Source: Candidatus Obscuribacteraceae bacterium (GTDB lineage: Bacteria > Cyanobacteriota > Vampirovibrionia > Obscuribacterales > Obscuribacteraceae). Taken from it: DNA of 64,000 bases. The stretch covers positions 128,001 through 192,000 of the forward strand of contig JBGAHS010000005.1 in the NCBI GenBank assembly GCA_044226015.1. Direction: 5' to 3'. The position numbers are program-made. Of this stretch, positions 27,001-30,000 are shown piece by piece (within the stretch, counting starts at the first letter, position 1; every line of letters starts with the position of its first letter).

Positions 27001-30000
27001 TGAGTCAATAATGTGAATAAAGGCTTCATAGCAAGAAAATAGTCCGTGTCTTCCTGTAAGTAGATAACCTTCAAGCCAACCCTGACACATGTGTTCGCTG
27101 AGAACTTCCATGACTCTGCCGTCATGAGTCAAGTGCTCGTCAGTGGAAAGAATGTCGTCAGCAAAAACTTTTCCTGTGACATCAAACACTGCACCCAGTC
27201 TATTTGACTGAGTTTCATCGGGCCCTACTATTCTGAAGTTCTTGTTCTTTTCATTGAACTTCATCACATCACGCACGAATTCTCCGGCAACGCGAATTGA
27301 CTCTGCATCTGTTCTTCCTGGTGCGGAAACCTCAACTGCGTACTTGCGAAAGTCTGGCATGTGCAATTCACGCAGAAGAACTCCTCCATTTGCGTGAGGA
27401 TTGGCTCCCATTCTGCGGTTTCCGCTTGGAGCAAGCTGCGCTATTTCTGGCTTTATTCTTCCGTTTTGATCGAAGAGTTCTTCTGGTTTATAGCTCTTCA
27501 TCCACTCTTCAAGTTGTTTGATGTGCTCTGGCTTTGTTTTCAATTCTGAAAGAGGAACCTGGTGAGAACGGTGGGTTCCTTCTACCTGTTTTCCATCCAC
27601 AACTTTTGGACCCGTCCAGCCTTTAGGGCTGCGGAGAATTATCATCGGATACAATGGACGTGCTTTGAATTCTTTTGCTGCATCTGACTTGATTTGTTTG
27701 ATATCAGCATAAACAGCATCTAGTGTGGCAGCAAACCACTGGTGCATTGATTTTGGTTCTTCACCTTCAACAAAATATGGTTTGTATCCATATCCGTTAA
27801 ACAAGCTTGTGAGCTCATCATCACTCATTCGAGATAGCACGGTTGGGTTTGCAATCTTATAACCGTTCAGGTGCAGAATTGGAAGAACGATGCCATCGCG
27901 TGATGGGTTGATGAATTTGTTCGAGTGCCAGCTTGCAGCAAGAGGTCCCGTTTCTGCTTCGCCATCACCGACAACACATGCCACAATCAAATCGGGGTTA
28001 TCTAACGCAGCACCATATGCATGTGCTACAGCATAACCAAGCTCACCACCTTCATGAATCGAGCCAGGTGTCTCTGGCGCGACGTGGCTAGGTATGCCAC
28101 CTGGGAACGAAAATTGTTTGAACAATTTTTGCATTCCCTCTTCGTCCTGGGTGATGTTAGTGTAAATCTCTGAATATGTTCCTTCGAGATAAGTATTAGC
28201 TACCAGGGCTGGTCCGCCGTGACCAGGACCTGTAACAAAAATCATGTCCAGGTCATGCTTCTTGATCAATCTGTTTAGATGAACATACATGAAATTGAGA
28301 CCAGGACTTGTTCCCCAATGTCCCAACAAGCGCGGCTTGATGTGCTCGAGTTTTAGTTCTTCCTTGAGCAAAGGATTGTCCAGCAAGTAGATTTGCCCAA
28401 CTGACAGGTAATTAGCAGCGCGCCAGTACATGTCAATTTTGTTCAATTCATCGTCAGCTAAGGGGGTCTTCTGAGAGAGGTCCTCAACGGTTTTATTTAA
28501 GCTGGAGACTGTCATGATAAGTGCTCCTATGAAATTAAGGACCACATTATAGCCGCTTATGTTTGCTGCTTTCTGTCATTTAATGAGCTTGCGCAATGAT
28601 CGCAAAGTTCCGCCTTGCAAAGTGAACCTGATTCATTCCATTGTGAGATGGCAAGCGAACCTGCTCAAGCACGTTCTGTCGGCGCCGCTATTGTCGTCAA
28701 TTTCCACAAATCTTGGAGTAGCGCTGTGCAGGCTTTCTAGAGCGATTTGTCCGTTTCCTGTTTGGCACTTGTTTTTCGCAAGGTGCCATAGACTCTAGTT
28801 TGACTTCTCAAAGTGCCGTACACCTTAACCTGGCAATGCGGTGCGTGCTGAGCCTGCGCTGGCCCGACATGGTTGGGTCGATGACGCAACGTATCCATCA
28901 TCGTGGACATGTGCTTTTTCTTGCTCTCTTCCTCTTCCTCATTCGCAACGCGTTGACCCATTTCATCCATCGCATCTTCGTGCTTGTCGTAGAACTGAGT
29001 GCCGTAATCAGAGTACTTTCCGGTGTCAAACGTGGTGTAGGACACGAAAGGGCGTTTTGCCATGCGTTCGTGCATGATTTCATCTGTCGTTTTCACAATG
29101 TCTTCGGATGTGTTTGGATCGATGGTGTTCATGTTGACGCCAGCTTTGATGGTGTCACGGAACCCTTTGCGTTCTAGCTCATGTTTGCGGTCAAAACCTT
29201 GCATATGACTGCGTTCAGTGAGTTCATGTGAATGTTGCCGGAAGTGCTCCATTTGCATTCTTGCAAAGATAACCTTCTTCTGGTCCATCGAGATGGTTTT
29301 GTCTTGCCACACTCCACCAAGTCTTTCGGCAAGTCTCAATTCTCCAGCGAGATCTTCTGGATTCCAATATCCCGGAATGCAATGCAGCACTGTGCCATCT
29401 GGCGCCATTACGAACATCTGGATGTTGTGTGGACCGGCACCGTTAGTGGTTTCCACCGCGTTTCCATCCACGGTATGAACACCGGAATTTCCCGCAAAGG
29501 GTTGGTCGCTTATGTCGCGATACCCGCAAACATAGCGGTTTCGGAGGCTCGAGAATAATGGTTCTTTGGAGAGCGACACGGCTCTGAGGCTATTGCCGGC
29601 ACTTCAAGTCTTGCCGTCCATTGAGCCGAGCATATGCACCCAAAAGATGAGCTTGCCGTTTTTCGTTGCTTCTTGCTCAGCTTCTTCGAGGTTGCTGCGC
29701 CAATTAATGCGACGATTAACCTGGTAATTTTCTTTTCGCGCTTCACTGCCAGGTACGAACGACAGTTTGTCAGCGCTGGCGGGCAAGCCAAAGCCAACAG
29801 CGAGAGTCAGGGAGAACAGCTTGATTAGCAATTTCATTAAGGGTTACCAGCCACTCACAATATGATTATAATGAACTTCTTTTGGCTGGTAGTCAAGTGA
29901 AGTGGAGCTTTTTTGCTTCTCAGGTGAAAGCCTTGCTTTTGCTTGATTTACGGACGGGATCATCCGCTTCGGGGAACTCGGGGAGCTTTGGGAGCTCGTC

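Follow-up and report, generated by a model that had tools for sequence, protein, structure and literature searches.

The reverse strand of the window, by which we mean the whole 64,000-nucleotide stretch analyzed from the genome of a Candidatus Obscuribacteraceae bacterium, carries two adjoining open reading frames (ORFs) that gene callers keep apart. The question is whether they form one gene, in which an in-frame UGA is read as selenocysteine (Sec, U), and what protein such a gene would make.

One frame across a TGA codon

Under translation table 11, the locus is split into a 77-aa ORF and a 280-aa ORF. Translated with TGA as U, positions 28737..29837 (minus strand) yield a single 366-aa protein, the group-1 protein P0001, with one in-frame TGA at codon 78 in the context GKT-U-SAGN, followed by 288 further codons up to a TAG; relatives are conserved on both sides of the TGA. 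Three other loci of the genome, read in the same way, give P0002 (344 aa; like P0001, a group-1 protein), P0003 (372 aa), and P0004 (319 aa) with one internal U each, reproducing the four lengths given in the initial annotation.

The features of the window gene all lie on the minus strand. By sequence inspection, residues 1–22 (29772..29837) resemble a signal peptide, with a basic start, a hydrophobic core, and an A-S-A end, and a crude test that is not a signal-peptide predictor found a hydrophobic N-terminal core at 42 of 43 group-1, 44 of 48 group-2, and 30 of 30 group-3 sites. A predicted thioredoxin-fold domain, assigned from a structure model and its structural matches, covers residues 35–178 (29304..29735). 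The TGA itself (29604..29606), putatively Sec 78, stands immediately before the modeled active-site helix (H79–88), and two relatives, L091 and L092, have TGT/TGC in the same column. Conservation and the model delimit a putative, mostly helical C-terminal domain at residues ~180–300 (28938..29300), in which K187, R209, D216, D228, H256, and R258 are near-invariant in group 1; it is followed by a variable, poorly conserved tail (residues ~320–366, 28740..28880) modeled with a pLDDT of about 45–50. A weak sigma-70-like site at 29868..29896, ahead of the start codon, is not above chance (3 sites against 1.3 ± 1.2 expected). The neighboring genes encode a phosphoketolase, a glycogen phosphorylase, and a double sensor kinase, and no common partner gene was found among the neighborhoods of 12 loci, where these genes stand alone.

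Since TGA terminates 1488 of the 5470 long ORFs of this genome, the genetic code is not reassigned; the 319-aa group-3 gene on contig C11 itself ends in TGA. The Sec machinery reported earlier was recovered in full: a tRNA-Sec with anticodon TCA at C11:1300243 (64.7 bits against a cut-off of 47), together with selA, selB, and selD, all above their family cut-offs.

Conservation of the codon and of a downstream hairpin

P0001 matched 92 of the 107 genomes of the order, its own included, and the TGA was present in 150/150 of the matches listed (there were 112 further matches), which bears out the order-wide retention already described. P0003 matched 78/107 order genomes, many of these being cross-matches to group 1, and P0004 matched 34/107. 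The nearest named relatives are Obscuribacterales records. In a set of distinct sites picked by motif, where a few divergent loci (such as L058, L098, and L102) may be missed, TGA was retained at 45 group-1, 51 group-2, and 59 group-3 sites (155 in total), and Cys took its place at 2 group-1 and 22 group-2 sites. L098, with the motif NDG-U-MASR, looks from its sequence like a fourth group.

Cys forms exist in all three groups, hence Sec use is not obligate, as it had been thought to be when no Cys form was seen. Besides L091 and L092, group 1 includes the Cys-containing database proteins P0018, P0054, and P0058. Those of group 2 are L076 and L077 (TGC), the database proteins P0165 and P0171, and ~430-aa proteins from other parts of the phylum and from Planctomycetota; those of group 3 are the database proteins P0336, P0341, and P0386, the last from a named member of the Planctomycetota. 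A sample of 301 genomes of the phylum gave 14 further loci, of which one was a chance match and the other 13 have Cys at the site; from their placement outside the class, we take the 13 to belong mostly to oxygenic cyanobacteria. Of 150 database relatives, 13 finish exactly one residue before the U. Glu occupies the site in L089 and L090, and Ser, Ala, or Glu was seen across some relatives (including P0023 and L089/L090), so not every member would be redox-active.

A SECIS-like hairpin lies at 29570..29585 (+19 to +34 after the UGA), with a 6-nt loop; the loop G at +25 (29579) is where gene callers begin the second ORF, with GTG as its start. It is present in all four genes of this genome, one more than first counted. 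The arrangement fits the bSECIS model as summarized in PMC13188914, namely a stem-loop with a G in the first two loop positions, here +25/+26, for a model range of 16–37 nt. A full 5-bp stem with the loop G at +25/+26 accompanies 41/45 group-1, 48/51 group-2, and 51/59 group-3 Sec sites, and random synonymous recoding leaves the stem in 1%, 7%, and 15% of cases, respectively; as related genomes are not independent, these stem counts and the codon counts below are not probabilities. The Cys forms mostly lack it, with a full stem in 0/2 sites of group 1 and 1/22 of group 2. In register, 96–98% pair, compared with 23–67% in slid-register controls. Within codons +7 to +11, synonymous choice is fixed in group 1 (GCC 40/40, GTG 36/36, TCG 39/41) and in group 2 (AGA 33/34, ACC 33/33, GTG 34/34), whereas the adjoining Ser +12 codon of group 1 varies (13/12/8/8). 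Compensatory stem changes were found from A-T to T-A and to C-G in group 2, and from G-C to A-T and T-A in group 3. These patterns point clearly to selection acting on the hairpin RNA, and the initial view of the UGA as a Sec codon followed by a SECIS-like element gains from the conservation at synonymous sites, the compensatory changes, and the decay in Cys forms.

A hairpin alone is weak evidence, since under a loose rule one follows 521 of the 10431 in-frame TGAs of this genome; hairpin scans of the whole genome are unspecific, and the Sec case rests on the conservation of the hairpin across relatives. Outside other genes, the genome-wide scan placed a hairpin after 175 of 2905 TGAs. By eye, the four known loci were the only credible ones in these scans, which does not prove them to be the whole selenoproteome, and a dicodon coding-score scan for further loci recovered 0/4 of the known positives.

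Three readings would do without Sec. The locus might instead comprise one gene for a short exported peptide that stops at the TGA and another for a protein starting at the conserved GTG, with the conserved DNA serving as a start signal. The called start does coincide with the conserved loop GTG, and most database relatives begin downstream of the TGA. However, the TGA splits one thioredoxin domain after its first strand, uninterrupted Cys forms exist, and among the fetched loci the stop at this site is always TGA and never TAA or TAG. Moreover, 5 of the 45 group-1 sites have GGG for GTG with the loop G and the stem kept, and group 3 has no start codon at the loop position, which makes two genes very improbable. 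Reading of the UGA as Trp or Gly under an altered code, or leaky read-through, is just as improbable. It could appeal to the two database proteins with W at the site (P0006 and P0019), but TGA is a common stop here that also terminates a group-3 gene, the aligned genomic residue is Cys, and TGG was absent from the site in every genomic locus compared; the W records would most simply be gene calls made under another code table. Least credible of all are pseudogenes broken by a nonsense mutation. A mid-gene stop codon would suit them, yet the same codon occupies the same site in three groups and more than one phylum, the frames are intact on both sides, and synonymous sites are saturated. Given that TGA is an ordinary stop, that the machinery is present, that TGA is kept at 155 sites with Cys aligned to it, and that the hairpin is conserved, UGA 78 is almost certainly read as Sec, as judged from sequence comparison.

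Fold, active site, and known families

The initial annotation treated the proteins as three separate families. Profile comparison aligned U to U between groups 1 and 2 (probability 99.3, E 1.6e-20) and between groups 1 and 3 (93.9, E 1.6e-7), the comparison of groups 2 and 3 being weak and out of register (73.4). By this measure the three groups are homologous and would be counted as one superfamily.

Confident structure models were made for groups 1 and 3, with pLDDT values of 85.9 (P0001) and 90.5 (group 3), and each shows a helix that begins immediately after U. The best structural match of P0001 was 3f9u_B (VIA-align Z 10.8, rmsd 2.4, 110 aligned), its best E in Foldseek being 8.2e-3, and P0004 gave a match with Z 12.2, rmsd 2.8, and 117 aligned. 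The listed top matches were DsbD C-terminal domains (DsbD-gamma), DsbH, AGR3, DUF255, UAS, and plain thioredoxins, and models and fold searches agree on a thioredoxin core of four strands, in which the active-site helix has the reactive residue at its N-terminus. Group 3 consists of two tandem thioredoxin domains (24–159 and 166–282) with Foldseek matches to ERp44 and PDI (E 4e-6 to 2e-5), so the C-terminal part, once described as having no known fold, is in this group a second thioredoxin domain. Sequence searches gave faint signals: Thioredoxin_7 was matched by P0003 and P0004 at E 0.006–0.03 and not by P0001, and a search of PDB chains with the three profiles found nothing at E 0.001 (AGR3 came at 0.023). 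An Atlas look-up with the natural Cys relative P0018 returned unnamed clusters at 0.90–0.91 and Thioredoxin_7 clusters at about 0.8. The models thus place the proteins with thioredoxins of the DsbD-gamma/DsbH/AGR type, with the predicted Sec just ahead of the active-site helix; together with the hydrophobic N-termini from the crude test, this accords with the exported thioredoxin-like proteins proposed at the outset.

The fold appears to be that of the Thioredoxin_7 (PF13899)/DUF255 (PF03190) clan, represented by the DsbD C-terminal domain (3f9u, 1vrs), DsbH (2ju5), AGR2/AGR3/ERp18 (3ph9, 1sen), and 3ira. Shared with this clan are the start W-x(n)-A-x-x-x-A-x-x-x-x-K-P and a reactive residue at the start of the helix. 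Unlike its members, these proteins have no CxxC, carry a loop insertion before U, appear to have Asn-x in place of the usual cis-Pro, and possess extra C-terminal domains. None of the four proteins of this genome passes the PF13899 gathering cut-off of 27 bits, and 2 of 14 relatives barely do (27.7–27.8). For group 3, PDI and ERp44 offer an analogy only: tandem thioredoxin domains, the reactive residue in the first, and putative export are shared, but identity is 9–12%, the domain packing differs, and the whole-length rmsd is above 15.

The active site itself is unusual. The +3 residue is G, A, or K, so the second Cys of a C(U)-x-x-C motif is absent. Candidate partner thiols are, in group 3, an invariant C55 in the C-x7-U loop plus C88; in most members of group 2, a vicinal C-U; and in group 1, C104 and C153, which are only partly conserved. 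Thioredoxin-like disulfide enzymes usually have a cis-Pro before the next strand. Where it would stand, the three groups appear to have an invariant Asn-x (N138, N175, and N115), which could mean another chemistry.

The absence of a +3 Cys and the invariant Asn would suit a peroxidase-like role. The gene would then encode a selenoprotein that is a peroxidase or another one-selenol enzyme, resembling glutathione peroxidase (GPx) or deiodinase and acting outside the cytoplasm on small molecules and not on protein disulfides. In all groups, this Asn precedes the hairpin Gly by 10 residues, a spacing that we take to be that of the W-N-F Asn of glutathione peroxidases, and the many invariant polar C-terminal residues suggest a pocket. 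Against this stand the listed top structural matches given above and the tandem, PDI-like layout of group 3. No GPx or peroxiredoxin was among the listed top structural rows of either model, which does not exclude such a fold, and none was matched in Pfam by the four proteins of this genome. We consider this alternative unlikely, though far less so than the readings without Sec.

The protein is very probably a redox enzyme, and we put the chance that it is a reductase or isomerase, as opposed to a peroxidase or something else, at about even. As a whole, the probable reading of the locus is a single gene for a Sec-decoding, exported thioredoxin-fold protein that would most likely act in the envelope as a thiol-disulfide reductase or isomerase. 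The ribosome would read the in-frame UGA as Sec within one gene, SelB binding the loop of the hairpin some 25 nt downstream to bring in Sec-tRNA(Sec), by analogy with the known bacterial pathway. The signal peptide would direct export. Judging from the model and the residue spacing, Sec would take the position that the attacking Cys holds in CxxC, where the active-site helix begins, and its selenolate may attack a substrate disulfide or an oxidized cysteine; resolution might come from C55/C88 in group 3, the vicinal Cys in group 2, or an outside thiol in group 1. Such an enzyme would reduce or reshuffle oxidized cysteines of exported proteins, as a member of the DsbD-gamma/DsbH/AGR-ERp18 clan, on substrates perhaps selected by the group-specific C-terminal domain. 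The genome encodes several large Thioredoxin_7-domain proteins, which could supply the electrons.

No curated Pfam or NCBIfam model is reached by the four proteins, as had been stated, and 0/38 scanned proteins attained any model cut-off of NCBIfam release 20. The closest models also describe thioredoxin-like selenoproteins: VPGUxxT (OS_HP5; NF041382/NF041383) and Trx7/PDZ (NF041199). Matches to them cover the first 60 or so model positions and not the C-terminal parts, the best being 33 bits (E 4.6e-8, L190), with E 0.005–0.008 for the proteins of this genome. For NF041382/NF041383, the VPGU motif is absent and these 33 bits compare with cut-offs of 275/350 (38 proteins); for NF041199, which demands CxxU and a PDZ domain, the best score was 22.9 bits versus 300. 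The motifs here are instead T-U-S-A, C-U-T-N, and C-x7-U-P. None of them is given in Table 1 of PMC13188914 (119 families) in its available form, where some rows give no motif, nor did the accessible part of PMC12013277 contain anything matching these families. BSepDB, according to the part of PMC13326102 at hand, searches known families only. Among the candidates of Table S9 of PMC4807772 are two from planctomycetes described as "thiol-disulfide isomerase-like thioredoxin" and a further one described as "hypothetical"; no sequences are given for them, so an overlap with the present families is possible. As far as these lists go, the families appear uncatalogued, and they are widespread.

Selenocysteine use in the order and beyond

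Group-1 TGA forms also occur in one Planctomycetota and one Fimbriimonadaceae record, both from genomes with selA. In the phylum of the Planctomycetota record, the group-2 profile matched 41 and the group-3 profile 30 of 231 genomes, mostly with TGA and with up to seven group-2/3 matches in some genomes, so the family is common in Planctomycetota too and is not typical of Obscuribacterales alone. One "Actinobacteria" record with group 1 has selA coordinates identical to those of the order member G311.

Across the order, selA is over its cut-off in 85/107 genomes and selD in 92/107. The lower count for selB (63/107) reflects the threshold of E 1e-70, and 4 of 5 re-tested genomes were over the cut-off at a looser E. 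Group 1 and selA are both present in 81 genomes and both absent from 10; 11 genomes have group 1 only (ten of them 86% complete or less, 8/11 with selB), and 5 have selA only. Searches of these five selA genomes found no member of the three groups and no Sec-peroxiredoxin, so either other Sec proteins exist there or the machinery is idle.

The mechanism of Sec-UGA recoding is the usual bacterial one, with an in-frame UGA, a stem-loop, the full machinery, and Cys/Sec pairs, and nothing in it is new. The setting differs, as SelD, Fdh-like proteins, and GPx of this order, the three known selenoprotein families checked order-wide, are Sec-free: SelD has no internal stop in 92/93 matches, Fdh-alpha-like proteins are stop-free in 116/116 matches (none over the family cut-off), and no GPx match among those listed, from 83 genomes, has Sec. 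The single TGA-bearing SelD comes from a GC-rich contig of 1.6 kb in G349, a genome that has another SelD without a stop, and probably represents contamination. In G356, a TGA within an AhpC match was rejected as Sec because of an upstream frameshift. As far as visible use goes, the superfamily carries most of the Sec use in these non-photosynthetic cyanobacterial relatives. No literature joining Obscuribacterales with Sec was found. PMC1794560 and PMC9312934 report the Sec trait as not detected in cyanobacteria, the 2006 survey being limited to genomes sequenced by then; PMC1794560 also states that most selenoprotein families moved from Cys to Sec and that every Sec decoder without FdhA had a Sec-SelD.

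A quick tree (88 rows, 120 columns, site masked, midpoint root, no bootstrap) covered groups 1 and 2, without group 3 or the group-1 Cys forms known from databases. It requires three Sec/Cys changes. In group 2, each of the two Cys sets is nested within Sec rows, and the larger set falls in a grade made up of Sec forms from Planctomycetota (support 99, 91, 97, 98, and 88). The Cys pair of group 1 shares an unresolved fork with rows that carry Sec. Proteins with Cys from other parts of the phylum do not cluster with those of Obscuribacterales. The simplest reading, though not a proven one, would be that Sec is ancestral. We would go further only tentatively, and with somewhat less than even confidence, to an old superfamily of exported seleno-thioredoxins, ancestrally with Sec, that keeps the Sec machinery in most Obscuribacterales and whose active site may run an envelope chemistry that is not Dsb-like. 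If true, this would break the older rule that a decoder without Sec-FdhA has Sec-SelD, and would place Sec use inside the Cyanobacteriota, where the remaining members would have retained just a derived form with Cys.

About 119 prokaryotic selenoprotein families are listed at present; the proteins would extend this number by three related groups and by further divergent members with TGA, and would allow hundreds of database records that are now split to be corrected. The natural Sec/Cys twins, with and without the hairpin, offer pairs for comparing the chemistry and for testing a compact SECIS. The superfamily also documents that one order within the phylum Cyanobacteriota uses Sec, and, as the usual Sec carriers are Sec-free there, the order offers a clean way to test why Sec decoding is kept.

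Surroundings of the selenoprotein gene

The group-1 selenoprotein gene (window 28737..29837, minus strand) is directly preceded by a questionable ORF of 140 aa in which PRIQQ units recur (29844-30266, minus strand) and in which a GC-rich 15-bp tandem unit occurs in 4.8 copies at about 30004-30075. A 22-bp repeat also lies within this ORF.

Farther upstream and divergent in orientation from the selenoprotein gene lies the gene of a tandem double sensor kinase of 1255 aa with two PAS-HisKA-HATPase sets (30564-34331, plus strand), and a similar gene is likewise found upstream at two other loci, L050 and L051. 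It is followed by the gene of an exported-looking 427-aa protein with poly-Gln, Asn-rich, and Gly/Arg-rich tails (34332-35615, minus strand), for which a Pfam search returned no match.

Distribution and setting of selA

In a class-wide sample of 201 genomes, selA exceeded the cut-off in 44, all confined to families f1, f40, and f41; none turned up in those small-genome families that were covered. In several genomes, a gene for a ~400-aa translation GTPase, probably EF-Tu, is found no more than about 5 kb from selA, which stands apart from selB, selD, and selC (own genome, G000:C3:256022-260518; G335:C6; G337:C1; G343:C6). One relative, L053, comes from a record titled Actinobacteria; because the selA coordinates of its genome are identical to those of order member G311, this title is probably a mislabel.

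Five genomes encoding selA, three from the order (G356, G404, and G405) and two from elsewhere in the class (G407 and G411), yielded no member of groups 1, 2, or 3 and no Sec-peroxiredoxin. The three order members also possess selB and selD, and their SelD and GPx lack Sec.

Divergent members of the superfamily

Locus L098 (G377:C3, about 80650-80900, minus strand) carries the site motif NDG-U-MASR with a hairpin in the same register and probably represents a fourth group of the superfamily. In two group-2 paralogues, L089 (G343:C1) and L090 (G350:C5), C-E replaces C-U; their chemistry has likely been changed or lost.

Finally, four genomes from the phylum of the Planctomycetota record G507 (G614, G635, G723, and G654) have 4-7 superfamily matches each, most with one TGA and many divergent, which makes further hidden selenoprotein groups likely.
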